Below are positions 5,861 to 41,968 of a stretch of 41,968 nt of DNA, in pieces; positions within the stretch are counted from its first letter, which is position 1, and each line of letters opens with the position of its first letter. The DNA lies in the IMG/VR virus record IMGVR_UViG_2563366992_000001, positions 1 to 41,968 of that record, one strand, 5' to 3'. Origin of the DNA: a virus. Its lineage: Duplodnaviria > Heunggongvirae > Uroviricota > Caudoviricetes. The position numbers and the translations under genes are program-made. The notes under the pieces are model-generated. The model was not told the DNA's origin. It searched no databases and worked only from the letters and a program-made list of their open reading frames with translations.

Positions 5861-6106
5861 ATGACTTTTGATGAAAAAGAACTTGATAATGCAATTAATA
5901 AAATCATCGTAACGTCGCTCTTTTCCTGTCTCAGCGACACTCAGCAGAAACAGTTCTACGAATCGGCTTTCAACATGATCGAGCGTTGTTGTTTCTGCGA
6001 TGCCGACGAGTTACCTGAAAAAATCAGGAAACAGTTGGCTGATGCTCTTCGAGTGCGACTTTCTGACCAATTTTCTGAAATGTGCTCTCCGAATTTGGAC
6101 AAATAG
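5861..6106 (+). CDS. hypothetical small protein
   Basis: 81-aa ORF with AAAGGA RBS; helical-looking sequence. Confidence 0.45.
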   Translation: MTFDEKELDNAINKIIVTSLFSCLSDTQQKQFYESAFNMIERCCFCDADELPEKIRKQLADALRVRLSDQFSEMCSPNLDK

Positions 6107-6299
6107 AAAAAGGCCATTTCCATTCAGGGTCTGATGGAAATACTTCAGCCTGTTCCAAAGCACGGCGTAAAGAGAACACAACTCCAGCCATAATCTGATG
6201 TTTCCCATTGGTCCAGCTATCGCCGCTCTGATCTACAGGGGCGGCTATGTCGTATGACCAAACGACTTCACAGTTATTGTTTAAAATCTGGACTTTCAT
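6024..6299 (-). CDS. hypothetical small protein downstream of cI (rex-equivalent position)
   Basis: Internal ATG (MKVQIL...) with AGGTG RBS; same orientation as and immediately downstream of cI; 3' end overlaps convergent ORF 5861..6106. Confidence 0.4.
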   Translation of the reverse strand: MKVQILNNNCEVVWSYDIAAPVDQSGDSWTNGKHQIMAGVVFSLRRALEQAEVFPSDPEWKWPFSICPNSESTFQKIGQKVALEEHQPTVS

Positions 6300-6505
6300 T
6301 TCATACACCTGCTTTAACATGAGTGCCTGGTGGCACAACATGACTCAACGAATCATCCTGGACTTCATATGCCCCAGGCGGCTACTTCGTGGGCGTCCTG
6401 CCTGTTCGTTATCTTTGATATAAAATCTAACTTAACTTAGTTATTATGGCAAGAGAAAACACCAAACTTTTCTTAGTTCGGTGCCTTAGTTAGAGAAGAG
6501 AGGTC

Positions 6506-7132
6506 TTAGAGTTCGTATTGAACTCCTTTGACTACACCAATGATAAGGCAATTACCATTGATAGGGATGTTGGGATACCGAGGATTTAATGGCACTAAAA
6601 ACTTTTGAGGGCCATCGATGACTAATTTTTTTACTGTAGCTTCGTTTGTTCCATCAAGTCGAGCGATGACTATTTTTCCATGACGAGGTTCTGCATCTGG
6701 ATCTACAATCACTGTTGCGCCTTCTGGTATTGTTGGGAGGCCATTAGGGTTAGTCATGGAGTCACCTTTAACCTCTAATGCAAATGAGTTATCACCAATC
6801 TTTAATGATGTATCTACCCACTTGTCCACTTCACTAAACACTTCTGCTGCCCTGCACTCAGTAAACTGCCCAGCCTGAACCCACGATATTACAGGAACTC
6901 TGCGCATGTTTGTGACGAGTTTGCCTTCAAACTCAGCACCATAAAGAATGTAATCTATTGACGTATTGAAGAACTTCGCTAATTTCGAAAGTGCCTCCCC
7001 ACCAGGGGTATTGATGTCTTTCTCCCAGTACCCCACAGCAACGTCGCTTACTCCACAAAATTTACCCAATTCTTTCTGGGACGTTCCGGTAACTCTTCTC
7101 AGAGCTTTTATACGCTGACCAACCGTTTCCAT
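6506..7132 (-). CDS. cI: CI-type prophage repressor (HTH + S24 LexA-like peptidase domain)
   Basis: N-terminal HTH, C-terminal GDSM serine motif and downstream Lys; divergent from cro. Confidence 0.85.
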   Translation of the reverse strand: METVGQRIKALRRVTGTSQKELGKFCGVSDVAVGYWEKDINTPGGEALSKLAKFFNTSIDYILYGAEFEGKLVTNMRRVPVISWVQAGQFTECRAAEVFSEVDKWVDTSLKIGDNSFALEVKGDSMTNPNGLPTIPEGATVIVDPDAEPRHGKIVIARLDGTNEATVKKLVIDGPQKFLVPLNPRYPNIPINGNCLIIGVVKGVQYEL

Positions 7133-7229
7133 AGGAGCACCATTTCTTGAATTGCTAAGTAATCTTAGTTTTTATTGACCAAAGATAGATTTGTAATTAG
7201 CATCTAATAAAACTTAGTTTGGAGGGCGT
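7133..7229. promoter_or_regulatory. divergent immunity operator/promoter region (pRM/pR-like)
   Basis: Palindromes CTAAGTAATCTTAG (7155..7168) and ATTAGCATCTAAT (7196..7208); TTGACC -35-like hexamer 7175..7180; cI start codon has no SD (leaderless-like). Confidence 0.55.
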
Positions 7230-7430
7230 ATGACAACTGACGATATCGAAAGCTACTTCGGCAGTATTGAGAAAGTTGCTGCTTTTTTCGGCATAACAAC
7301 TGAAGCCGTTTATCAGTGGCGAAACCGTCCGGGCCAGTTAATTCCAAAAGGACGTGCAGCAGAAGCTGCATATAGAACTTGCGGACGGTTGCCATTTAAA
7401 CCTGAGCTTTATGAAAAATCTAATGGATAA
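7230..7430 (+). CDS. cro: Cro-like HTH regulator
   Basis: 66-aa ORF with GGAGGG RBS, divergent from cI. Confidence 0.75.
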   Translation: MTTDDIESYFGSIEKVAAFFGITTEAVYQWRNRPGQLIPKGRAAEAAYRTCGRLPFKPELYEKSNG

Positions 7431-8019
7431 ATCGATTAACAGAAACCACAGAACGATGAGGCTAACCGTGGGTAAGCATCACTGGAAAGTAGAAAAACAG
7501 CCTGAGTGGTACGTGAAAGCTGTCAGAAAAACTATCGCAGCGTTGCCGGGTGGTTACGCTGAAGCGGCTGACTGGCTCGATGTAACAGAAAACGCTTTAT
7601 TCAACCGCCTTCGTGCAGATGGCGATCAGATTTTCCCGCTGGGATGGGCAATGGTTTTACAGCGTGCTGGTGGCACTCACTTCATTGCTGATGCTGTGGC
7701 GCAGTCTGCAAATGGCGTCTTTGTGTCTCTTCCTGACGTCGAGGATGTGGACAACGCCGATATCAACCAACGCCTGCTGGAAGTCATTGAACAGATCGGC
7801 AGTTATTCAAAACAGATTCGTTCAGCAATTGAAGACGGTGTAGTGGAACCGCATGAGAAGACAGCAATTAACGATGAGCTGTACCTCTCAATTTCGAAGC
7901 TGCAGGAGCATGCAGCACTGGTCTACAAAATCTTTTGCGTTTCAGAAAGTAGTGACGCCCGCGAGTGTGCAGCTCCGGGCGCCGTGGCGTGTCGTGACTG
8001 TGGAGAAACTAACGCATGA
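7423..8019 (+). CDS. putative CII-like / YdaT-like regulatory protein
   Basis: ATG at 7423 overlaps cro stop (ATGGATAA); position after cro. Confidence 0.35.
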
Positions 8020-8354
8020 ACAGTTTAACAACACACTACCGTCGCTCGCAACTGATTGCGCTTCCTGTACCGGGTGGAAAAGCGAAGGTGGAGTATTGCT
8101 ATGCAGTAAATGTACCAGGTGACAGGGAAATTGTAACCCACAGCTTTGCAGAGTGGGCTGTGGGTGATTTCAACCGGCAGAAGGAGACAGTCCTTTGCGA
8201 CAAGTTAACCGCTGGTTCAAAGATCACTACGGAGTGCCCGTCAGAGTCATTCGTTGGGAGCCGGAAACACAACGTGTTATCTACCTCCGCGAAGGCTATG
8301 AGCATGAGTGCTTCAGCCCGCTCGAACAGTTTCGTCGTAAATTCAGGGAAATAG
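8016..8354 (+). CDS. hypothetical protein, possibly frameshifted
   Basis: ATG overlaps previous stop (ATGA); C-terminal ~60 codons are Ser/Thr-rich and look non-genuine, whereas an overlapping frame encodes a protein-like sequence. Confidence 0.35.
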
Positions 8355-8374
8355 AGGTCGGTCATGAGCACTAA
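8195..8374 (+). CDS. alternative-frame small ORF (TTG start) or C-terminal part of a frameshifted gene
   Basis: AAGGAG 8181..8186 then TTG 8195; frame open 8168..8371; encodes [58 protein letters not shown]; stop overlaps the next gene's ATG. Confidence 0.25.
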
Positions 8375-9305
8375 ATTAACCGGCTATGTATGGGATGGTT
8401 GCGCTGCATCAGGCATGAAATTATCCAGCGTGGCAATTATGGCCCGCCTGGCTGATTTCAGTAATGACGAAGGTGTGTGCTGGCCATCAATTGAAACCAT
8501 TGCCCGCCAAATTGGCGCGGGAATGAGTACCGTCAGAACGGCTATCGCACGGCTGGAAGCAGAAGGCTGGTTAACGCGTAAGGCGCGTCGCCAGGGTAAC
8601 CGCAATGCGTCGAATGTTTATCAGCTTAACGTTGCGAAGCTTCAGGCAGCGGCATTTTCTCAACTGTCAGATTCTGACCCGTCAAAATCTGACGCATCAA
8701 AATCTGACCCGTCAAAATTTGATGCGTCGAAATCTGGCAAAAAAGCGGGTTTTCACCCGTCAGAATCTGGCGGGGATCCGTCAGTAAAATCAAAACATGA
8801 TCCGTCAGATAAAAAAACTTCTCGTCCGGACGCTTCGCAACCGGACACGCAGACGGCTGAACAGGAGTTTTTAACTCGCCATCCTGATGCGGTTGTATTC
8901 AGCCCTAAAAAGCGCCAGTGGGGAACGCAGGATGATTTGACCTGCGCACAGTGGCTCTGGAAAAAAATCATCGCCCTGTACGAGCAGGCCGCCGAATGTG
9001 ACGGCGAGGTGGTTCGTCCCAAAGAACCGAACTGGACAGCCTGGGCAAACGAAATTCGCCTGATGTGTGTGCAGGATGGTCGTACTCATAAACAAATCTG
9101 CGAGATGTACAGCCGCGTCAGTCGCGATCCGTTCTGGTGCCGTAACGTGCTCAGCCCGTCGAAGCTGCGGGAAAAATGGGATGAGCTTTCCCTGCGCTTA
9201 TCGCCGTCCGTCAGCACGTACACCGAAAAACGCGAAGACCCGTACTTCAAAGCCAGTTACGACAACGTGGACTACAGCCAAATCCCGGCAGGATTCAGGG
9301 GGTGA
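8364..9305 (+). CDS. phage replication initiation protein (O-like, N-terminal HTH)
   Basis: 313-aa ORF with N-terminal HTH-like region and an internal repeat-encoded linker (SKSD pentapeptides); position after cro/cII. Confidence 0.6.
   Translation: MSTKLTGYVWDGCAASGMKLSSVAIMARLADFSNDEGVCWPSIETIARQIGAGMSTVRTAIARLEAEGWLTRKARRQGNRNASNVYQLNVAKLQAAAFSQLSDSDPSKSDASKSDPSKFDASKSGKKAGFHPSESGGDPSVKSKHDPSDKKTSRPDASQPDTQTAEQEFLTRHPDAVVFSPKKRQWGTQDDLTCAQWLWKKIIALYEQAAECDGEVVRPKEPNWTAWANEIRLMCVQDGRTHKQICEMYSRVSRDPFWCRNVLSPSKLREKWDELSLRLSPSVSTYTEKREDPYFKASYDNVDYSQIPAGFRG
8666..8773. repeat. tandem ~15-bp iteron-like repeats inside the replication gene (candidate phage origin)
   Basis: Five consecutive units of the form GTCAAAATCTGACNC at 8666..8740 plus one more at 8759..8773, followed by an A-rich stretch 8811..8817. 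Confidence 0.45.
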
Positions 9306-9796
9306 GCATGAGTCTTTTGAATGACGTTCAGAAATTCATTGAAGCCCATCCGGGCTGTACTTCCGGAGATATTGCGGATGCTTTTGCCGGTTACTCACGG
9401 CAGCGCGTTCTGCAGTCAGCAAGCAAGTTACGTCAGAGTGGGCGTGTGGCTCACCGTTGTGAAGGAGATACACACAGACATTTCCCGCGCCTGACTGAGA
9501 GAGCGCAGGATCCGGAACCACAACCAGTTCGTGAAACCAGACCTGTGCGCAATTTCTATGTCGGCACTAACGACCCGCGGGTGATTTTGTGCCTGACCCG
9601 CCAGGCGGAAGAACTGGAGTCCAGGGGCTTATACCGTCGTGCTGCAACGGTGTGGATGGCGGCATTCCGTGAAAGCCACTCCCAGCCAGAACGAAACAAT
9701 TTTCTGGCGCGTCGTGAACGGTGTTTACGGAAAAGCAGTAAGCGGGCTGCATCAGGTGAAGAGTGGTATCTCTCAGGGAATTACGTGGGGGCTTAA
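9302..9796 (+). CDS. hypothetical protein with PerC/Pch-like C-terminal motif
   Basis: Segment LESRGLYRRAATVWMAAF resembles the PerC-family signature; recognition from memory only. Confidence 0.3.
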   Translation: MSMSLLNDVQKFIEAHPGCTSGDIADAFAGYSRQRVLQSASKLRQSGRVAHRCEGDTHRHFPRLTERAQDPEPQPVRETRPVRNFYVGTNDPRVILCLTRQAEELESRGLYRRAATVWMAAFRESHSQPERNNFLARRERCLRKSSKRAASGEEWYLSGNYVGA

Positions 9797-25457: not shown

Positions 25458-26937
25458 CACCATTCCGTCGAATACGCTGGTTCCGTTGTTTTATGCGGAA
25501 ATGGATAACCAGGCGGCGAATACTGCACAGGACAGCGGAGCATCGCTGCTGATTGGTCATGCCAATAACGGTGCAGAGATTGTTGCCAACAGTCTGGTAC
25601 TGATGTCGTCGGCAGACTATGCACGCCAGATTTGTGGTGCGGGAAGTCAGCTGGCGCGTATGGTCGAGGCTTATCGCCAGACTGACCCGTTTGGCGAGCT
25701 GTATGTGATTGCCGTTCCTGAATCCACAGGTGCGGCGGCAACAGTTACGCTGACGGTGACCGGGGCGGCAACCGAAACCGGCACGGTGAATGTGTATGTA
25801 GGACGTACCCGCGTGCAGGCACCGGTGACTAACGGCGATAACGTCACGATGATTGCCAGCAGTATCCAGGATGCCATCAATGCCGTTCCGACCCTGCCGT
25901 TTACGGCTTCATCTTCGGCAGGCGTGGTCACACTGACCGCGCGTCATAAGGGGCTTTGTGGGAATGAAATTCCTGTCAGCCTCAATTACTACGGCTTTGG
26001 TGGGGGCGAAGTGCTGCCAGCGGGCGTACAGATTGCCGTGGCGACGGGTACCGCCGGAACGGGTGCTCCGGTTCTCACCGGCGCGGTGGCTGCAATGGCG
26101 GATGAGCCGTTTGATTATATCGGCCTGCCGTTCAACGACACGGCCTCCGTTAACACGCTGGTGACCGAGATGAACGATACCAGCGGTCGCTGGAGCTATG
26201 CGCGTCAGCTGTATGGTCATGTGTATACGGCAAAGATCGGCACGCTGTCAGAACTGGTGACCGCAGGTGACCAGTTTAACCAGCAGCACATTACCCTGGC
26301 GGGGTACGAAAAAGAGACCCAGACGCCTGCCGACGAGCTGGCGGCAAGCCGTACCGCCCGCGCAGCGGTGTTTATCCGCAACGATCCGGCACGTCCCACG
26401 CAGACCGGTGAGCTGGTGGGTATGCTGCCTGCGCCGAAGGGGAAACGGTTCACGATGACCGAACAACAGACCCTGCTGTCTCATGGCGTGGCAACGGCGT
26501 ATGTCGAAAGCGGGGTACTACGCATTCAGCGTGATGTCACCACGTACAGGAAAAACGCTTACGGGGTTGCGGATAACAGTTACCTCGACAGTGAGACGCT
26601 GCATACCAGCGCGTATGTACTGCGCAAACTGAAATCCGTCATTACCAGTAAGTACGGGCGTCACAAGCTTGCCAGTGACGGTACCCGCTTTGGTCCCGGT
26701 CAGGCGATTGTCACCCCGGCGGTGATCAAAGGGGAACTGCTGGCAACCTACCGTCAGCTTGAGCGTGCGGGGATCGTGGAAAACTACGAACTGTTTAAGC
26801 AGTACCTGGTTGTGGAGCGTGATGCCAGCGATCCGAACCGCCTGAACACGCTGTTCCCGCCTGACTATGTTAACCAGCTGCGTGTCTTTGCCGTGGTTAA
26901 TCAGTTCCGTCTTCAGTATTCAGAGGAGTCTGCATAA
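25441..26937 (+). CDS. tail sheath protein (Mu L-like)
   Basis: 498-aa ORF followed by tube, chaperone and tape measure genes. Confidence 0.8.
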   Translation: MTISFNTIPSNTLVPLFYAEMDNQAANTAQDSGASLLIGHANNGAEIVANSLVLMSSADYARQICGAGSQLARMVEAYRQTDPFGELYVIAVPESTGAAATVTLTVTGAATETGTVNVYVGRTRVQAPVTNGDNVTMIASSIQDAINAVPTLPFTASSSAGVVTLTARHKGLCGNEIPVSLNYYGFGGGEVLPAGVQIAVATGTAGTGAPVLTGAVAAMADEPFDYIGLPFNDTASVNTLVTEMNDTSGRWSYARQLYGHVYTAKIGTLSELVTAGDQFNQQHITLAGYEKETQTPADELAASRTARAAVFIRNDPARPTQTGELVGMLPAPKGKRFTMTEQQTLLSHGVATAYVESGVLRIQRDVTTYRKNAYGVADNSYLDSETLHTSAYVLRKLKSVITSKYGRHKLASDGTRFGPGQAIVTPAVIKGELLATYRQLERAGIVENYELFKQYLVVERDASDPNRLNTLFPPDYVNQLRVFAVVNQFRLQYSEESA

Positions 26938-34600: not shown

Positions 34601-35383
34601 ATGCATCGTATAGACACGAAAACCGCGCAGAAGGATAAGTTCGGCGCGGGTAAGAACGGTTTTACCCGTGGTAACCCCCAGACCGGCACGCCTGCCACCG
34701 ATCTGGATGATGACTACTTTGACATGTTGCAGGAGGAGCTTTGCAGCGTTGTGGAGGCATCCGGTGCCAGCCTGGAGAAGGGGCGGCATGACCAGCTGCT
34801 TACCGCGCTTCGTGCGCTGCTGTTAAGCCGCAAGAATCCGTTTGGCGATATCAAATCGGATGGCACGGTGAAAACAGCTCTCGAAAACCTTGGTTTGGGA
34901 GAAGGCTCAGCATTACCCGTTGGTGTGCCTGTTCCGTGGCCTTCAGCCACTCCGCCAACAGGCTGGCTGAAATGCAATGGTGCGGCTTTTTCTGCTGAAG
35001 AATACCCGGAACTGGCAAAGGCTTATCCGACAAATAAATTACCTGATTTACGCGGTGAGTTTATTCGTGGCTGGGATGACGGACGTGGAGTGGATAACGG
35101 AAGGGGATTATTAACGCTTCAGGACGGTGCGATTGTCAGTCATAACCACTATTGGGGAATCTGGACTTCACGAACTAACGACCAGACTCTGGGAAGTTTT
35201 ACAGGCACCACGATTTTAAAACAAATCACGCCCCTGTCTCCAGCCATTGACTTCGATAATTACCCAATTCCCAACCCGGCTATTACAGAGGGTGGTGTTG
35301 TTGCGGCAACGACTAAACCTGCAGGTGCGAATGAAACACGCCCACGAAATGTCGCTTTTAACTATATTGTGAGGGCTGCATAA
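34601..35383 (+). CDS. tail fibre protein (constant N-terminus plus currently expressed variable C-terminus)
   Basis: Gly-rich C-terminal tail-fibre motif ([19 protein letters not shown]); crossover site lies within the gene. Confidence 0.8.
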
Positions 35384-35985
35384 TGAATAACGCAGAATTA
35401 AACAGTGAATTAATTGCCACTATGGCAGGAGAAATTACTGTTTATAACTTTGACGTCATGAGTCGGGAGTATATTTCAGCTTCAACTGAATATCTTGCTG
35501 TTGGTGTCGGCATTCCGGCATATTCCTGTTTAGATGCTCCAGGCACCTACAAAGCTGGTTATGCAATCTGCCGCTCTGCAGATTTTAACTCATGGGAATA
35601 TGTACCAGACCATCGCGGTGAAATCGTCTATAACACCGAAACGGGAGACGCCAAAGAAATCACAACTCCGGGTGATTACCCCGAAAAAACAACCACTATC
35701 GCCCCGTTAACGCCATACGATAAATGGGATGGTGAGAAATGGGTGACGGATACTGAGACACAGCATAGCGCCGCAGTAGACGCGGCAGAAGCACAACGTC
35801 AGTCACTGATTGATACTGCAATGGCTTCCATTAGTCTGATTCAACTGAAATTGCAGGCCGGGCGGAAGCTGATGCAGGCAGAGACCACCCGACTTAACAC
35901 TGTGCTGGATTACATTGACGCGGTGACGGCAACAGATACCAGTACCGCGCCGGATGTCATCTGGCCTGAACTGCCGGAGGAGTAG
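35383..35985 (+). CDS. tail fibre assembly protein (active orientation)
   Basis: C-terminal motif LNTVLDYIDAVTATDTSTAPDVIWPELPE. Confidence 0.85.
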   Translation: MNNAELNSELIATMAGEITVYNFDVMSREYISASTEYLAVGVGIPAYSCLDAPGTYKAGYAICRSADFNSWEYVPDHRGEIVYNTETGDAKEITTPGDYPEKTTTIAPLTPYDKWDGEKWVTDTETQHSAAVDAAEAQRQSLIDTAMASISLIQLKLQAGRKLMQAETTRLNTVLDYIDAVTATDTSTAPDVIWPELPEE

Positions 35986-36388
35986 GCCATTCAATATCTG
36001 GCGCACTGGAAGTATCGACCAGTTCCAGGGCGTCCAGATAATCCAGCCACAAATTATATTGCGCCAGTTCCTCACCTTTCAGACGACCAATCGCCGCTTT
36101 ACCAGGCCATTGTTTACTGTTCATGTATTCGTTGGCCTGATTAACTAATCGCTGTTTATTTGATTCAGCGATTGAGATTAATTCTTCGCTGGTAAGTGGT
36201 GGCGCATCCTGCCATGCTGGAAAACCATTTTTATCTGAACCAAGTATTTTACCATCAGGCCATGCAACTCCTGCGAACTCAGAATAAATAGTAAAGTTTA
36301 TTTTCGTAGCGTTCTCAGGAATGGTTTGGCTATCTGGTGAAATATAAAATCCCGAATCAGAGGGATTAAAATAATATGTCTTTTCCAT
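35957..36388 (-). CDS. tail fibre assembly protein (alternative orientation)
   Basis: C-terminal motif YNLWLDYLDALELVDTSSAPDIEWPTPP; inside the invertible segment. Confidence 0.75.
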   Translation of the reverse strand: MEKTYYFNPSDSGFYISPDSQTIPENATKINFTIYSEFAGVAWPDGKILGSDKNGFPAWQDAPPLTSEELISIAESNKQRLVNQANEYMNSKQWPGKAAIGRLKGEELAQYNLWLDYLDALELVDTSSAPDIEWPTPPAVQAR

Positions 36389-36390
36389 AG

Positions 36391-36789
36391 TTAATACCCC
36401 ACAGCCATCCAGTAAATTGAATTTGTTGTAGCAGAAGTGTAAGTAAATCTGATTTTAGTTCTGTTGGTACTTCCAATATCAAAGCCCACAGAACGGGCAG
36501 AAGGATCATTAGTTGAAATAAGAGCGTTTACCGAACGACAAGCAGCAGGGAAAGCTACAGGTAATGTTATATCAACTGTTCCAACACTTCCTCCGGTTGG
36601 TGAGACAGAAAAACTCCCCCATTGAATAATCATCCCCCCAGGTAATTTCTGGTATCCATTGGCGGTCAATGAGTTACCAAAGCTGTTCATATCCGGTACC
36701 TGATTTTCTCCTGTCCCCACATTCCTCTTTGCCGCTTCTCCCAAACCAACGTTTATGAAAATGCAGAAATAACGAGCAAATGGCATCAT
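36391..36789 (-). CDS. alternative tail-fibre C-terminal segment (silent orientation, no own start)
   Basis: Reads LGLGE across the crossover site, as the active fibre does; would fuse to the constant region after inversion. Confidence 0.6.
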   Translation of the reverse strand: MMPFARYFCIFINVGLGEAAKRNVGTGENQVPDMNSFGNSLTANGYQKLPGGMIIQWGSFSVSPTGGSVGTVDITLPVAFPAACRSVNALISTNDPSARSVGFDIGSTNRTKIRFTYTSATTNSIYWMAVGY

Positions 36790-36815
36790 TCCTGCTTTTG
36801 TCAGGGAGATCTACC

Positions 36816-37370
36816 ATGCTTATTGGCTATGTACGTGTGTCAACAAATGACCAGAACACAGATCTACAACGTAATGCGCTGAACTGTGCAGGATGCGAGC
36901 TGATTTTTGAAGACAAGATAAGCGGTACAAAGTCCGAAAGGCCTGGACTGAAAAAACTGCTCAGGACATTATCGGCAGGTGACACTCTGGTTGTCTGGAA
37001 GCTGGATCGGCTGGGGCGTAGTATGCGGCATCTGGTCATTCTGGTTGAGGAGTTGCGCGAACGAGGCATCAACTTTCGTAGTCTGACGGATTCAATTGAT
37101 ACTAGTACCCCAATGGGGCGCTTTTTCTTTCATGTGATGGGTGCCCTGGCTGAAATGGAACGAGAACTGATTGTTGAACGAACAAAAGCTGGACTGGAAG
37201 CTGCTCGCGCACAGGGACGAATTGGTGGACGTCGTCCCAAACTTACACCAGAACAATGGGCGCAGGCCGGTCGATTAATTGCATCAGGCGTTCCTCGCCA
37301 GAAGGTGGCGATCATCTATGATGTTGGTATATCGACACTGTATAAGAAGTTTCCGGTCGGAGATAAATGA
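36816..37370 (+). CDS. pin: serine DNA invertase (Pin/Gin/Hin family)
   Basis: N-terminal GYVRVSTNDQ catalytic-Ser motif and C-terminal HTH; adjacent to the invertible segment. Confidence 0.9.
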   Translation: MLIGYVRVSTNDQNTDLQRNALNCAGCELIFEDKISGTKSERPGLKKLLRTLSAGDTLVVWKLDRLGRSMRHLVILVEELRERGINFRSLTDSIDTSTPMGRFFFHVMGALAEMERELIVERTKAGLEAARAQGRIGGRRPKLTPEQWAQAGRLIASGVPRQKVAIIYDVGISTLYKKFPVGDK

Positions 37371-37427: not shown

Positions 37428-38297
<870 letters not shown>

Positions 38298-38377
38298 CTA
38301 ACCCTTTGAATTTACATAGCGCAAAAAGATACCTTTCCTCATAATGTGAGCTAATTTTATGTTTCGTTTGATGATCG

Positions 38378-38426
38378 GGTCGGTCTCGAAACCCGTAGCC
38401 ACGTCATATGCAAGAACGTGCTACGA
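38378..38426. repeat. direct repeat copy B (degenerate copy of the pin 3' end plus hairpin)
   Basis: CGGGTCGGTCTCGAAACCCGTAGCCACGTCATATGCAAGAACGTGCTACGA aligns with copy A over about 50 bp with a few substitutions and indels. Confidence 0.55.
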
Positions 38427-38706
38427 CTGGCTGGTGAACTTCCGATAGTGCGAGTATTGAATGATTTCCAACTGTTATCGATTTTGCGTATTTTTTGCAT
38501 GAGAGGATTTTTACCTCCTCCCACCGATCCTCCATGGCTTTACGCCAGTGTCTCTGGTCTGCTATGTGCCAGTTGCGGACATTACAAATAGCAGTACGTA
38601 TTGATCAGTTCAAAAAAACCACAATATTTATTGAAACAAATGAAGGTAATGATATTTTATTGTGATGAAGTATTGGTGCTGGGATTTGACTTAAGGGAGT
38701 GAAGTA

Positions 38707-40026
38707 ATGTGCAATAAGTTATCAGGGTGTTTTCATGCTGTCGGAAATGGAACTTTTTTTACTTCAAAAATCCGAGGGGAAGATGGCAATGTATTTAACT
38801 GGGGTTATGACTGTGGCTCTACAAGTGAAAATGCCATAAATAACATAATTAACTCATCTTATATGGAGTTTGAAGACGGTGATAGTATAGATATGATGGT
38901 CATTTCTCATTTTGACGATGATCATGTTAACGGATTGATAACTCTATTAAGAAAGCACACAATAAAAAGATTGGTACTTCCTTATAGTGATTGGGCTCAG
39001 TCTATTAGGGAAATATGTATAGATGGATTCCATGGGTTATCACGTTCTGCCGCACTTTTTCAGTTAAACCCAGCACTATGGTTATATAATAACGATCTTT
39101 CAAATCGTGTGGAAAAAATAATTTTAGTACAAGGCAATGGTGGACCAGAGAATCCTGAGGAACCGATAACTCCTGAAAATCCTCCGAACAATCATGATGA
39201 ACCTTTGATACTAAGAGATGATTCGGAGGAATTAAACGATCCTGAACAAGAAAGACACATAAATGATGCCAAGGATAATATGTTTATTGATTTAGGCATG
39301 CCAATCAATAGTAGCGGAATGAAAATATCAAAAATCAACCACATGCAACCTATTGGTGCACTCGACGGTATTTTTGAATTTGTATTTTATAATGCTGAAA
39401 AAACATTTAAAAAACTCAATCTTGTGTATGAGAAAGATGAGGAATTTTACGCCATAAAATCTCATGTTAAACTTGCCGATGCTAAGAAAGATATTCAAGA
39501 AACAATTGAGAGTATTAACCTACACCGAAGTATCAACTCTAGTATTGATGTACAATGGCGGGAGAAGTTAAAGATTTGCTACCAAAAACATTTCGGTAGC
39601 ACCAATAAGGCCCAGAACAATATTTCTTTATGTATGTATGCGTCACCTAAAATCACCCCGCATGATGGCCTTTTCTTTTTCGGTCAATGTCAGGAAAGTT
39701 ACAATATTCATTCTTCTGGTTTGATATTTACAGGGGATATTAATCTGACAACCCCTGTTCTAGATGATTTAAAGTCTCATCTGGGCGTTGATCGATGGAT
39801 GAATTGTGGATTGTTTCAGATCCCTCATCATGGTTCGGCGACGTGCTGGGAGAAAGGACATACTAAAAGGATCAAACCTGCTTATTTTGTTCAATGTGCA
39901 AACCCTACATTAAAACATCCCAGTCAGTTTGTTTTAGATGATTTGAATGGTGAAAAAAGCATTGTTTATAATGCATCCCGACAAAATCCAGTACATTTTT
40001 CATACTTTTTCAAAAAGTATATGTAA
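38707..40026 (+). CDS. standalone ComEC/Rec2-like metallo-beta-lactamase-fold hydrolase (putative nuclease)
   Basis: Motifs CFHAVGNGTFF, SHFDDDHVNG (H-x-D-x-D-H), FTGDI, QIPHHGS and KHPSQ in the order seen in ComEC-type MBL domains; AT-rich; AAGGGAG RBS. Confidence 0.55.
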   Translation: MCNKLSGCFHAVGNGTFFTSKIRGEDGNVFNWGYDCGSTSENAINNIINSSYMEFEDGDSIDMMVISHFDDDHVNGLITLLRKHTIKRLVLPYSDWAQSIREICIDGFHGLSRSAALFQLNPALWLYNNDLSNRVEKIILVQGNGGPENPEEPITPENPPNNHDEPLILRDDSEELNDPEQERHINDAKDNMFIDLGMPINSSGMKISKINHMQPIGALDGIFEFVFYNAEKTFKKLNLVYEKDEEFYAIKSHVKLADAKKDIQETIESINLHRSINSSIDVQWREKLKICYQKHFGSTNKAQNNISLCMYASPKITPHDGLFFFGQCQESYNIHSSGLIFTGDINLTTPVLDDLKSHLGVDRWMNCGLFQIPHHGSATCWEKGHTKRIKPAYFVQCANPTLKHPSQFVLDDLNGEKSIVYNASRQNPVHFSYFFKKYM

Positions 40027-40138
40027 GAATAAACTATCGAGGTTTGTCGGAAAACAAAGCTGTTAGGGTAATGTTATGTTGTAATATTATCCGTCTATAA
40101 TTGAATGCTGAGTCCGCTGATCGCTCTTGAAGGACAAC

Positions 40139-40177
40139 CATACTCAAATCTCTCACATTGCAGGAGATTTGAGTATG
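40139..40177. repeat. perfect 14-bp inverted repeat with 11-bp spacer spanning the recombinase RBS and start codon
   Basis: CATACTCAAATCTC (40139..40152) and GAGATTTGAGTATG (40164..40177); the ATG at 40175 lies in the right arm. Confidence 0.7.
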
Positions 40178-40777
40178 AACACGTTACCGTGGAACAAAGA
40201 CCGTATCATCGGCCAAAAAAGACCGCTTCAGATATCTCATATCTGGGGGATCCGAATCAGGCTTGAACTGGAAGGTAAAACGCGCGATCTGGCCCTGTTC
40301 AACATGGCTTTGGACAGTAAGCTACGGGGCTGTGATCTGGTTAAACTAAAAGTATCAGATGTTGCATATGGTAGCTCTGTTTCAAGCAGAGCAACGGTGT
40401 TGCAGCAGAAAACCGGTAGCCCTGTGCAATTTGAGATAACTAAAGGGACTAGAGAAGCCGTTACTGCATTGATAAAGCTTAGTAATTTGCATAGTAAAGA
40501 CTACTTGTTCCGATCTCGGGTCGGTACTAACCGGCACATATCAACCCGGCAATACAACCGAATTTTTCATGGATGGATAGAAAAGCTTGGTCTCGAAGAT
40601 TCGCTTTACAGCACACATTCCATGAGAAGAACAAAACCTTACCTGATCTACAAGAAAACCAAGAATCTCCGAGTGATCCAACTTCTGTTGGGCCATAAGA
40701 AACTGGAAAGTACAGTCCGTTATCTGGGCATTGAAGTCGATGATGCGTTAGAGATCTCTGAATCGATTGAAGTCTAA
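40175..40777 (+). CDS. small tyrosine recombinase, FimB/FimE-like size (200 aa), catalytic domain only
   Basis: Catalytic residues in order: LRGCDLVKLKVSDV (Arg I), HSMRRT (H-x-x-R), LLGH, TVRYLG (Tyr); no arm-binding N-domain; ATG at 40175 with AGGAG RBS. Confidence 0.65.
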   Translation: MNTLPWNKDRIIGQKRPLQISHIWGIRIRLELEGKTRDLALFNMALDSKLRGCDLVKLKVSDVAYGSSVSSRATVLQQKTGSPVQFEITKGTREAVTALIKLSNLHSKDYLFRSRVGTNRHISTRQYNRIFHGWIEKLGLEDSLYSTHSMRRTKPYLIYKKTKNLRVIQLLLGHKKLESTVRYLGIEVDDALEISESIEV

Positions 40778-40783
40778 GGTTGT

Positions 40784-40805
40784 CAGGGCTGCGATAGCAG
40801 CCCTG
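40784..40805 (+). other. perfect 9-bp stem / GATA tetraloop hairpin after the recombinase (no U-tract)
   Basis: CAGGGCTGC GATA GCAGCCCTG. Confidence 0.4.
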
Positions 40806-40866
40806 TGCCAAGAACGGACTTTCTTGGTTCTGTTATTAATTATGGAGATAAGAAATTTATTTATGG

Positions 40867-40925
40867 CACTATAATGAGACTTAGGAAATAAGGGGTTAAG
40901 CTATATGACACTATAAGAACTAAGG
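40867..40925 (+). promoter_or_regulatory. paired direct repeats containing -10-like hexamers upstream of the last gene
   Basis: CACTATAATGAGACTTAGG (40867..40885) and CACTATAAGAACTAAGG (40909..40925). Confidence 0.35.
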
Positions 40926-40972
40926 ATGGGTTTCTAACGGATGAGTATATAACCAATTTAATAGGTGTTACT

Positions 40973-41968
40973 ATGAACGGAATTTGGTATAAAAACACAC
41001 ATACTCGCATTCCTCGCTTTGAATCTACAACTCATATTAATCAGAAAGTAGGTTATGCTTATGAAACATCAAGCCATTTCGTGCACTTTTATGGGCGTGA
41101 TGTTGGATTCAATGTTGTTTCAGTCGGATTAACTGTTGTTGAGCATAAAAATGGAAATCTAGATGAGTGGGTGCAAAGGGTTTTTGGCGCTCAAGATATC
41201 CAGCCATTGAACAAAGAGGTTGGGCATGTCACTCAAGGGGTGTGGAGACCTTCTCTTTACTATATGAAAGATATCGAAGTCGCGCTAGGTATTGATGAGT
41301 TTGAAAAACGCGCATCAGAACAAGCTCTACGAGTTCTCATTGAAAAAATTGATGATATTTTATTATATGTTGAACCTAGCTCTAGTGGGTTAAATTCATA
41401 TAGCCATAAATGCAGAGAGTTGTTGATTCTCGCATGTACTGAGGTTGAAAACCAATGGGTGTCAATAATAAATAAAACAAATGGATTCAAGTCAAATGCA
41501 AGGTACAATACCAATGATTACATTAAACTTTTGGATAAATGTTTTTTAAAAGACTTCAGAATACAGTACTGTAATTATCATGGCCTTAGGTTCTTTAAAC
41601 CATTTGATAGTTGGTCTATAGCCAATCCAACCACATCATTAAGATGGTATGACGCATATAATAAAACAAAACATGACAGATCTGGCGCATTTTATTTTTC
41701 AACTCTGGAAAATGTGATGGAAGCAGTAGCTGCATGTATTGTGTTGTATTGCGTAAAATATGGACCATTTAGTTTAACAGAGTCTAAAACAACGTTATCA
41801 ACAATTGTAAATCAACACTTTTCCATTTCATTTGAAAATAGTGACCCTGCAAATTATTACATTCCTGAAATTGAACTTCCACAAGGTTCTAGAGGTGATT
41901 TGTTTCTTTATGATTGTTATCGTGAAGGGCATAATAAAAATTGGATTAAAGACTCTTTGATTATATAG
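40973..41968 (+). CDS. hypothetical protein (331 aa), AT-rich cargo gene
   Basis: ORF with AGGTG RBS; no motif I can place; stop codon is the last triplet of the window. Confidence 0.5.
   Translation: MNGIWYKNTHTRIPRFESTTHINQKVGYAYETSSHFVHFYGRDVGFNVVSVGLTVVEHKNGNLDEWVQRVFGAQDIQPLNKEVGHVTQGVWRPSLYYMKDIEVALGIDEFEKRASEQALRVLIEKIDDILLYVEPSSSGLNSYSHKCRELLILACTEVENQWVSIINKTNGFKSNARYNTNDYIKLLDKCFLKDFRIQYCNYHGLRFFKPFDSWSIANPTTSLRWYDAYNKTKHDRSGAFYFSTLENVMEAVAACIVLYCVKYGPFSLTESKTTLSTIVNQHFSISFENSDPANYYIPEIELPQGSRGDLFLYDCYREGHNKNWIKDSLII

Follow-up and report, generated by a model that had tools for sequence, protein, structure and literature searches.

ComEC-like DNases in defence and a prophage-encoded relative

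According to three studies of 2025, several ComEC-like proteins of the metallo-beta-lactamase (MBL) fold are DNases acting in defence, namely HamM of Hachiman, the Avs MBL (Avs1a of Gao 2020), the Lamassu- and DRT-associated MBLs, and CanC (PMC12799240; PMC12642450; bioRxiv 10.1101/2025.09.03.673762). In the gated MBLs, two loops over the active site block the activity, and the enzyme is activated by a partner trypsin-like or caspase protease that cuts after conserved residues (PMC12799240; PMC12642450; bioRxiv 10.1101/2025.09.03.673762). The HamAB-associated MBL was found to cut DNA, and not RNA, beta-lactam or choline substrates (bioRxiv 10.1101/2025.09.03.673762). In our study, we analysed a stretch of 41,968 nucleotides from a virus of the Caudoviricetes (IMG/VR record IMGVR_UViG_2563366992_000001, positions 1 to 41,968), the whole of which is called the window here, and we found that its open reading frame (ORF) at 38707-40026 encodes a soluble ComEC-type MBL-fold protein, referred to below as the MBL protein. 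From its sequence, the MBL protein is best placed in the ComEC-like defence MBL clade, as a standalone representative with long insertions, and its closest studied analogues are HamM, the Avs-associated MBL and CanC, rather than ComEC. We consider it somewhat probable that the protein is a latent, self-contained, one-protein anti-phage DNase that is gated by its own insertions.

The MBL gene starts with ATG and encodes a protein of about 50 kDa with an isoelectric point of 5.7, the MBL core of which begins at residue 2. The gene and its motifs are as follows.

38693-38699, + strand: ribosome-binding site AAGGGAG, 7 nucleotides 5' of the ATG, read from the sequence
38707-40026, + strand: ORF of the soluble ComEC-type MBL-fold protein, 439 residues
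38905-38934, + strand: motif II, SHFDDDHVNG, residues 67-76, with the predicted metal ligands H68-x-D70-x-D72-H73, no variation in 52 homologues
39616-39633, + strand: NNISLC, residues 304-309 (N304 invariant, S307 nearly so), the ComEC/Pce-type counterpart of MBL motif 3
39727-39741, + strand: FTGDI, residues 341-345 (G343 and D344 invariant), with the predicted bridging aspartate
39817-39837, + strand: QIPHHGS, residues 371-377 (Q371, P373, H374, H375 and S377 invariant, G376 nearly so)
39913-39924, + strand: KHPS, residues 403-406 (H404 nearly invariant, P405 invariant)

The coordinates of the ORF and the order of SHFDDDHVNG, FTGDI and QIPHHGS were exactly as given in an earlier note on this DNA. 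Beyond these three motifs, the MBL protein was found to contain NNISLC, KHPS and a further ComEC-type motif, YDCGS, at residues 34-38. The NNISLC motif aligned to NNNSLVL of the ComEC structure 9ic4, and all of the ordered metal-binding motifs of MBL proteins (Asp; H-x-[HD]-x-D-H; His or Asn; Asp; His) were present in the sequence. In the alignment of 52 sequences, D35, H68, D70, D72, H73, N304, G343, D344, H374, H375, S377 and P405 were invariant and H404 was nearly so; because the motif residues are conserved to this degree throughout the family, the match exceeds chance.

The earlier note had proposed a profile search and a structure prediction as checks. The profile search gave a divided answer: the MBL protein alone scored 16.5 bits (E 0.0087) with Pfam Lactamase_B, below the gathering threshold of 22.7 bits, whereas 39 of the 52 family members matched the same model at E <= 0.01 (best 2e-9), and the top solved-structure matches of the family profile were the MBL domains of ComEC (9ic4, E 1.2e-9; 30bt, 9.5e-9). 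The structure model was confident (predicted local distance difference test score, pLDDT, 82.8; predicted template modelling score, pTM, 0.87) and contained the alpha-beta/beta-alpha sandwich fold of the MBL superfamily. The highest Kyte-Doolittle mean over 19 residues was 0.82, so a membrane segment is unlikely and the description of the protein as soluble stands; no signal peptide was found in it. The ratio of non-synonymous to synonymous substitution rates (dN/dS) was 0.18-0.19 against the orthologues of Erwinia and of one viral contig (L028), and the gene is under purifying selection. The best explanation of the sequence is a soluble phosphodiesterase, probably metal-dependent, that belongs to the ComEC/Pce branch of the MBL fold and has the full set of catalytic motifs.

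The earlier note had also called the protein ComEC/Rec2-type, which holds for the domain (by motifs, profile search and fold) and not for the protein as a whole. The MBL protein shares the ComEC-type domain motifs HxDxDH, NNxS, GD, HHGS and HP with the bacterial DNA-uptake protein ComEC/Rec2 (9ic4 of Moorella glycerini; 30bt), but it is devoid of the OB domain and of the competence membrane channel. Its core contains about 170 extra residues and a 20-residue loop before the GD motif, and the gene is carried by mobile elements and does not belong to a competence locus. The NCBIfam model ComEC_Rec2 (TIGR00361) gave 26 bits against a cut-off of 190 and matched at model positions 491-536 only; therefore the RefSeq name 'ComEC/Rec2 family competence protein', used in one genome, overstates the relationship.

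The other models were searched in libraries dated 2023 (PADLOC), 2025 (Pfam) and June 2026 (NCBIfam). The MBL protein scored 27.1 bits against a cut-off of 420 with NCBIfam Avs1a (E 1.6e-6) and 21.6 bits against 220 with NCBIfam 6A-MBL (NF058524). Ten diverse family members passed no NCBIfam cut-off either, and Avs1a gave at most 43 bits in those tested. The best named matches of the MBL protein were to PADLOC models for MBLs from protease-linked systems, LmuA (1.3e-11), RTasMBL (2.6e-10) and PDC-M48B (1.7e-7), and the PADLOC models LmuA-MBL (best 4.5e-18), RTasMBL and PDC-M48B were matched by all 52 family members. The matches in PHROGs were weak, to a 'tail protein' family (2.6e-8) and to a family of unknown function, and the viral structure library gave only two unnamed matches at E <= 0.001.

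Three other MBL-fold enzymes were compared with the MBL protein. The 6A-MBL system of jumbo phages also has an MBL-fold defence enzyme, but the MBL gene has no adjacent ATPase partner in the window. Pce/CbpE of Streptococcus pneumoniae (2bib, 1wra) is a secreted cell-wall enzyme with choline-binding repeats, which the MBL protein does not contain. Apyc1 (7u2r, 7u2s) is, like the MBL protein, a phage-encoded MBL-fold enzyme; however, it has an HxHxDH motif in place of HxDxDH, and the MBL protein gave no match to PF23023 at E <= 1.

Insertions in the catalytic core

The MBL core was found to contain three insertions.

39133-39321, + strand: insertion 1, residues 143-205, a disordered, acidic, proline-rich loop (residues 143-178, pLDDT < 50) followed by a helix
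39394-39606, + strand: insertion 2, about residues 230-300, a folded beta-hairpin and two helices with the family motif WRxxLKxxYxKHFG (Y292 invariant)
39649-39717, + strand: insertion 3, residues 315-337, a variable loop between the NNISL strand and the TGD strand, recognised by the NxS-to-GD spacing

Insertion 1 was net acidic in all 52 homologues, with a mean net charge of -7.2, and the rest of the protein was roughly neutral. It was hypervariable both in sequence and in length (21-74 residues), and the comparisons with Erwinia and L028 gave it a dN/dS of 0.30-0.46, above the 0.18-0.19 of the gene as a whole. Insertion 2 was modelled at a pLDDT of 82-96, and the region of residues 206-314, which encloses it, was under the strongest constraint in the gene (dN/dS 0.06-0.11); the highest values of the gene were found in the variable loops. 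Insertion 3 ranged between 7 and 53 residues across the family, had a pLDDT below 50 at residues 327-331, and has no counterpart in HamM, Avs1a or CanC. In distant members (P0063 and P0067), insertion 3 was longer and rich in cysteine, for example HFECGCSACRKCRRRRYY, and may be a zinc-binding element.

For the comparison with the defence MBLs, the sequences of HamM, Avs1a and CanC (PflHamM, EpiAvs1a and KaeCanC) were taken from the supplement of PMC12799240. The alignment made by hhalign with HamM and Avs1a covered the C-terminal 80 residues only (probability 96% for HamM and 26% for Avs1a); motif spacing and an E-INS-i alignment were therefore used instead. The numbers of residues from motif II to NxS and from NxS to GD, respectively, were as follows.

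MBL protein: 236 and 39
PflHamM: 188 and 19
EpiAvs1a: 192 and 18
KaeCanC: 161 and 18
ComEC (9ic4): about 83, from motif II to NxS

In the E-INS-i alignment, which is approximate at the level of the loops, the first cleavage-site isoleucines of HamM (I118) and Avs1a (I134) fell within insertion 1 and the second ones (I218 and I234, respectively) fell within insertion 2. Like the MBL protein, HamM, Avs1a and the Lamassu- and DRT-associated MBLs are separate, soluble, ComEC-like proteins in defence loci with the same order of motifs, and HamM and Avs1a carry insertions between motif II and NxS at the same two positions. The first loop of HamM is likewise rich in acidic residues, as judged by eye. 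However, the gated MBLs pair with the gene of a trypsin-fused sensor, whereas none adjoins the MBL gene in the neighbourhoods examined; they keep the isoleucine of the cut site, whereas the loops of the MBL protein contain no conserved isoleucine. Their second insertion is a loop, whereas that of the MBL protein is a folded, highly conserved module, accompanied by the additional third loop. The gated MBLs are 355-386 residues long (supplement sequences), in contrast to the 439 residues of the MBL protein. CanC of the caspase-nuclease (Canu) system is a ComEC-like gated MBL with the same order of motifs (PMC12799240). Its partners are the caspase CanA and CanB, and a glycine is conserved at its cut sites, whereas no caspase gene was found near the family members examined.

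The position and composition of the insertions suggest that they gate the enzyme. In the uninfected cell, the nuclease would be held latent by these family-specific insertions: insertion 1, the acidic disordered loop, could cover the DNA-binding face as a pseudo-substrate, and the folded insertion 2 perhaps also keeps the enzyme off. Infection would lift the block without a dedicated co-encoded protease. The MBL protein would then protect the lysogen by superinfection exclusion or by abortive infection, either attacking the incoming DNA or degrading DNA indiscriminately. We infer, by homology with ComEC, HamM, VcMBL and CanC, that the substrate is DNA and that its cleavage is metal-dependent.

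A more far-reaching proposal, which we put forward tentatively and judge rather unlikely, is that the family is a widespread, self-gated, protease-independent immune DNase with sensor, gate and effector in one chain. The conserved folded insertion (residues 206-314) would sense a phage cue, and the hypervariable acidic loop would plug the enzyme as a mimic of DNA; its displacement, or a cut made in it by the phage's own protease, would free the nuclease.

Family, genomic neighbours and proposed function

A database search with the MBL protein returned 182 homologues, and a profile search of 1.84 billion cluster representatives found 2,917 clusters of 50% identity at E <= 1e-30. Nearly all of the top 150 cluster matches were full-length, with about 375-500 residues, which indicates that the architecture is widespread. 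We found no paper on this family in the open-access literature to mid-2026.

A conserved partner gene was sought in 45 loci, whose MBL proteins form 23 groups with less than 90% identity between them, by clustering all of the ORFs within 5 kb. No neighbour family was common to the 23 groups or to the clade of 400-470 residues; the absence of a conserved partner among these loci bears out the earlier note in calling the protein standalone. The neighbours that did recur were limited to CBASS genes, in two related Pseudomonas loci, and to unrelated integrases, and a distant subgroup of 360-370 residues shares syntenic phage genes within itself only. No antitoxin-like small gene was conserved with the MBL gene in the 23 groups, and no trypsin-like or caspase gene was found in any annotated neighbourhood examined, nor in the window. 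In Campylobacter concisus (L022-L024), a distant branch with about 24-27% identity has MBL proteins of 377-396 residues (8001-9179 or 9240), and the gene of a 575-residue AAA (PF00004) ATPase (6249-7976) ends 25 nucleotides upstream of the MBL gene. This arrangement suggests a two-gene system of AAA ATPase and MBL; the C. concisus MBLs gave no match to the NCBIfam 6A-MBL model at E <= 1e-5.

The neighbours of the family members were mainly defence genes. The Serratia members were found beside GmrSD, an MmeI-type enzyme and T5orf172, the Pantoea members beside McrBC and the Mokosh gene MkoC, and the Pseudomonas members beside type II CBASS, to which one of the two loci adds an OLD/UvrD pair resembling Gabija. 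In Escherichia sp., the neighbours were a UvrD helicase resembling GajB and a DEAD/MZB helicase of 2,113 residues, and AbiH, type I restriction-modification genes and AAA_21/RloB were present beside more distant members. Seventeen family matches were on viral contigs, mostly prophages of isolate genomes by their names, and their sites varied: near tail fibres, a PDC-S06 ATPase, lambda O/P replication genes, integrases and HNH nucleases. In the window, the gene directly upstream, on the opposite strand, encodes PD-T4-3, a known single-gene defence protein. These surroundings, here and in other genomes, fit a DNA-targeting effector, as the earlier note had suggested. This genomic association points to a defence role, and the MBL gene is a good candidate for a single-gene anti-phage nuclease.

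The gene was also found to move on its own. Two features define the mobile unit.

38557-40126, + strand: mobile cassette of 1,570 bp, the MBL ORF with 150 bp upstream and 100 bp downstream, delimited by blastn
38631-38658, + strand: sigma-70-like promoter site TTGAAA, 16 nucleotides, TATTTT, with TG upstream of the -10 element, by consensus match only

By blastn against the fetched loci, the cassette was 97.5% identical to genomic-island loci of Pantoea stewartii (L008-L010) and 82.9% identical to prophage loci of Erwinia (L011/L012). The similarity to both genera spans exactly 38557/38560-40126, with sharp borders and none beyond, and the sigma-70-like site was kept in the Escherichia coli, Pantoea and Erwinia copies. 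The guanine-plus-cytosine (GC) content of the cassette was 35.7%, against 51.7% for the body of the prophage. In E. coli, the cassette is present in the thrW prophage beside PD-T4-3; in Pantoea, past a block of CbeA, RadC and antirestriction genes, between McrBC and the MkoC gene; and in Erwinia, between tail-fibre genes and the thrS-infC operon. The MBL gene thus travels by itself, as a single-gene cassette found in three genera, each time in an unrelated setting.

At the left border of the cassette (38557-38585) there is an inverted repeat, GTCYGC, 12 nucleotides, GCGGAC, and at the right border (40110-40126) there is the related sequence GAGTCCGCTGATCGCTC. These border sequences could be a recombination element, a terminator element or a product of chance. 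In P. stewartii L008, the cassette (MBL gene at 8001-9320) lies 300 bp after the gene of the CbeA antitoxin (7344-7700), a position at which we presume that a CbtA toxin gene would be expected, as in CP4-44-type islands.

Several observations weigh against the reading of the MBL protein as a latent defence DNase gated by its own insertions. No curated family or defence-system model reached its threshold on the MBL protein. No residue of insertion 1 was conserved in the 52-sequence alignment, so it bears no mark of a specific cleavage site, and insertion 2 is predicted to be folded and not a loop, so the likeness to gates cut by a protease is incomplete. Within E. coli, the gene is rare, being present in 3 of 5,426 complete genomes. 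Moreover, the association with defence comprises about 20 neighbourhoods judged by eye.

Among the alternatives, the one that survives best, although we think it unlikely, is that the MBL protein is a genuine zymogen, as HamM, the Avs MBL and CanC are, with its activating protease encoded elsewhere, either a host housekeeping protease that cuts the disordered loop or a protease of the infecting phage such as the prohead protease. In the latter case, the MBL protein would be a decoy substrate that turns phage proteolysis into destruction of DNA. The insertions are at the positions of known cleaved gates, insertion 1 is long, disordered and exposed, and activation by a protease is the sole mechanism demonstrated for the clade. 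However, the gated families keep an isoleucine or a glycine at the cut site, whereas insertion 1 has no conserved residue; furthermore, insertion 2 is predicted to be folded, and no protease gene adjoins the MBL gene in the neighbourhoods examined.

That the protein acts on a phosphodiester other than DNA, in a counter-defence or host-modifying role, is quite unlikely. Signalling nucleotides (as for Apyc1), RNA and phosphocholine esters (as for Pce) would be the candidate substrates. The motif set HxDxDH/NNxS/GD/HHGS/HP is that of ComEC and the defence DNases and differs from the HxHxDH of Apyc1 and RNase Z, and the Pfam model of Apyc1 gave no match at E <= 1. A cell-surface esterase would need a signal peptide, which the protein does not have. 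Members of the family also occur commonly outside phages, in defence islands of chromosomes, and the HamAB-associated MBL cut only DNA among the DNA, RNA, beta-lactam and choline substrates (bioRxiv 10.1101/2025.09.03.673762).

We regard as very unlikely that the protein acts on DNA for the benefit of mobile elements, by degrading host or competitor DNA at induction, by excluding plasmids or transforming DNA, or as an addiction toxin that keeps the island stable. The cassette is highly mobile and is always present within mobile elements, and its Pantoea copy directly follows the CbeA antitoxin gene, where the CbtA toxin gene would presumably be expected. On the other hand, no antitoxin-like small gene is conserved alongside, the neighbours are mainly anti-phage systems, and the position in prophages varies (tail-fibre end, beside replication genes, integrase end), a pattern expected of moron-type cargo and not of a gene of the phage life cycle.

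An inactive remnant or an annotation artefact, with which the score below the Pfam gathering threshold and the rarity in E. coli would agree, is close to refuted, since four orthologues, from three genera and one viral contig, keep an unbroken frame, the two divergent comparisons gave a dN/dS of 0.18-0.19, the catalytic motifs are invariant, the structure model is confident and there are thousands of full-length relatives.

The prophage around the gene and the meaning for the family

The window opens in proA, followed by tRNA-Thr (1369-1444) and the integrase gene. Past the gene of a serine invertase, the GC content falls from about 52% to 36-40%, and the order of genes is PD-T4-3, the MBL gene, a tyrosine recombinase of 200 residues and a protein of 331 residues. 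The features around the cassette are as follows.

35383-35985, + strand, with 35957-36388 and 36391-36789, both - strand: small tail-fibre/assembly ORFs, opposed
36780-37370: Gin/Pin-type serine invertase (Resolvase, E 1.3e-51)
37428-38201, - strand: PD-T4-3, full-length, GIY-YIG, LEM-3-like (PADLOC E 6e-140; Pfam LEM-3_GIY-YIG 2.8e-14)
40175-40777, + strand: tyrosine recombinase, 200 residues, catalytic domain only (Phage_integrase E 3.6e-18; phrog_216 integrase)
40973-41968, + strand: ORF of 331 residues (phrog_19461, unknown function, E 1.5e-187)

The DNA of E. coli CS18F was 100% identical to the window over 37435-41968. In CS18F, a 48-nucleotide 3' part of tRNA-Thr is repeated at 5875-5922 of locus L002 (the tRNA beside the integrase) and at 25572-25619, and this second copy (attR) lies about 1.9 kb past the end of the window. 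As the repeats flank the region, the MBL gene is inside the attL-attR bracket of the prophage; the earlier note had placed it in a phage cargo region, which is borne out by this bracket, although the proof lies outside the window. The prophage is integrated at thrW, and the MBL gene occupies its accessory region, with the tail-fibre invertase on one side and attR on the other.

The start of PD-T4-3 is given as TTG at 38252 in the ORF list, whereas RefSeq and the profile alignment favour 38201. The region 35383-37370 looks like an invertible tail-fibre region beside the Gin/Pin-type invertase. A search of defence models gave no match for the 331-residue ORF. The next gene past the window (L002 23822-25171) encodes a DUF4145 protein of 449 residues with a weak match to PD-T7-3 (E 3.8e-15). 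At this end of the prophage, the 331-residue and DUF4145 genes may represent one more candidate for defence, or two. An operon of the MBL gene with these downstream genes was rejected, because both are absent from the Pantoea and Erwinia contexts.

A perfect palindrome of 14 nucleotides, CATACTCAAATCTC, 11 nucleotides, GAGATTTGAGTATG, at 40139-40177 overlaps the start of the recombinase gene, and this region folds well (z = -3.05). A structured RNA or terminator in the cargo region was considered and rejected: Rfam gave nothing credible, and the strong hairpin at 40139-40177 is outside the cassette. A phase switch of the MBL gene by the recombinase was rejected as well, as no convincing pair of inverted repeats brackets a promoter, no invertible segment was found, and the recombinase lies outside the cassette common to Pantoea and Erwinia.

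The segment 38300-38590, about 290 bp located 5' of the ORF, was found in 3,126 of the 5,426 complete E. coli genomes, and its matches among phages were to non-coding DNA in HK97, HK106 and Stx phages. RefSeq calls an 87-bp piece of it (38406-38492) a 'capsid protein' pseudogene. It looks like a common lambdoid prophage-end segment, within which the cassette border at 38557 falls. The thrW site contains tandem elements, the prophage and, beyond it, a truncated Arm-type integrase and the vat autotransporter island. In the strains E06 and CS18F, insertions of IS26, IS1 and IS5 deleted most of the prophage, and the cargo end with PD-T4-3 and the MBL gene was kept.

The MBL gene is no lone curiosity but a member of a large unnamed family, which no Pfam, NCBIfam or PADLOC model claims at present and which RefSeq labels 'hypothetical' or, misleadingly, 'ComEC/Rec2 competence protein'. 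The family has the same catalytic core and the same insertion positions as the gated defence DNases, without their partner, and its cassette crosses genera. If the MBL protein defends, a family of about 2,900 clusters of 50% identity would gain a name and a function, and how a cytoplasmic DNase stays safe, and then fires without a co-encoded sensor or protease, would become a testable question. If the family is indeed self-gated, the protease-gated MBL modules would have a simpler, autonomous counterpart that spans these clusters.

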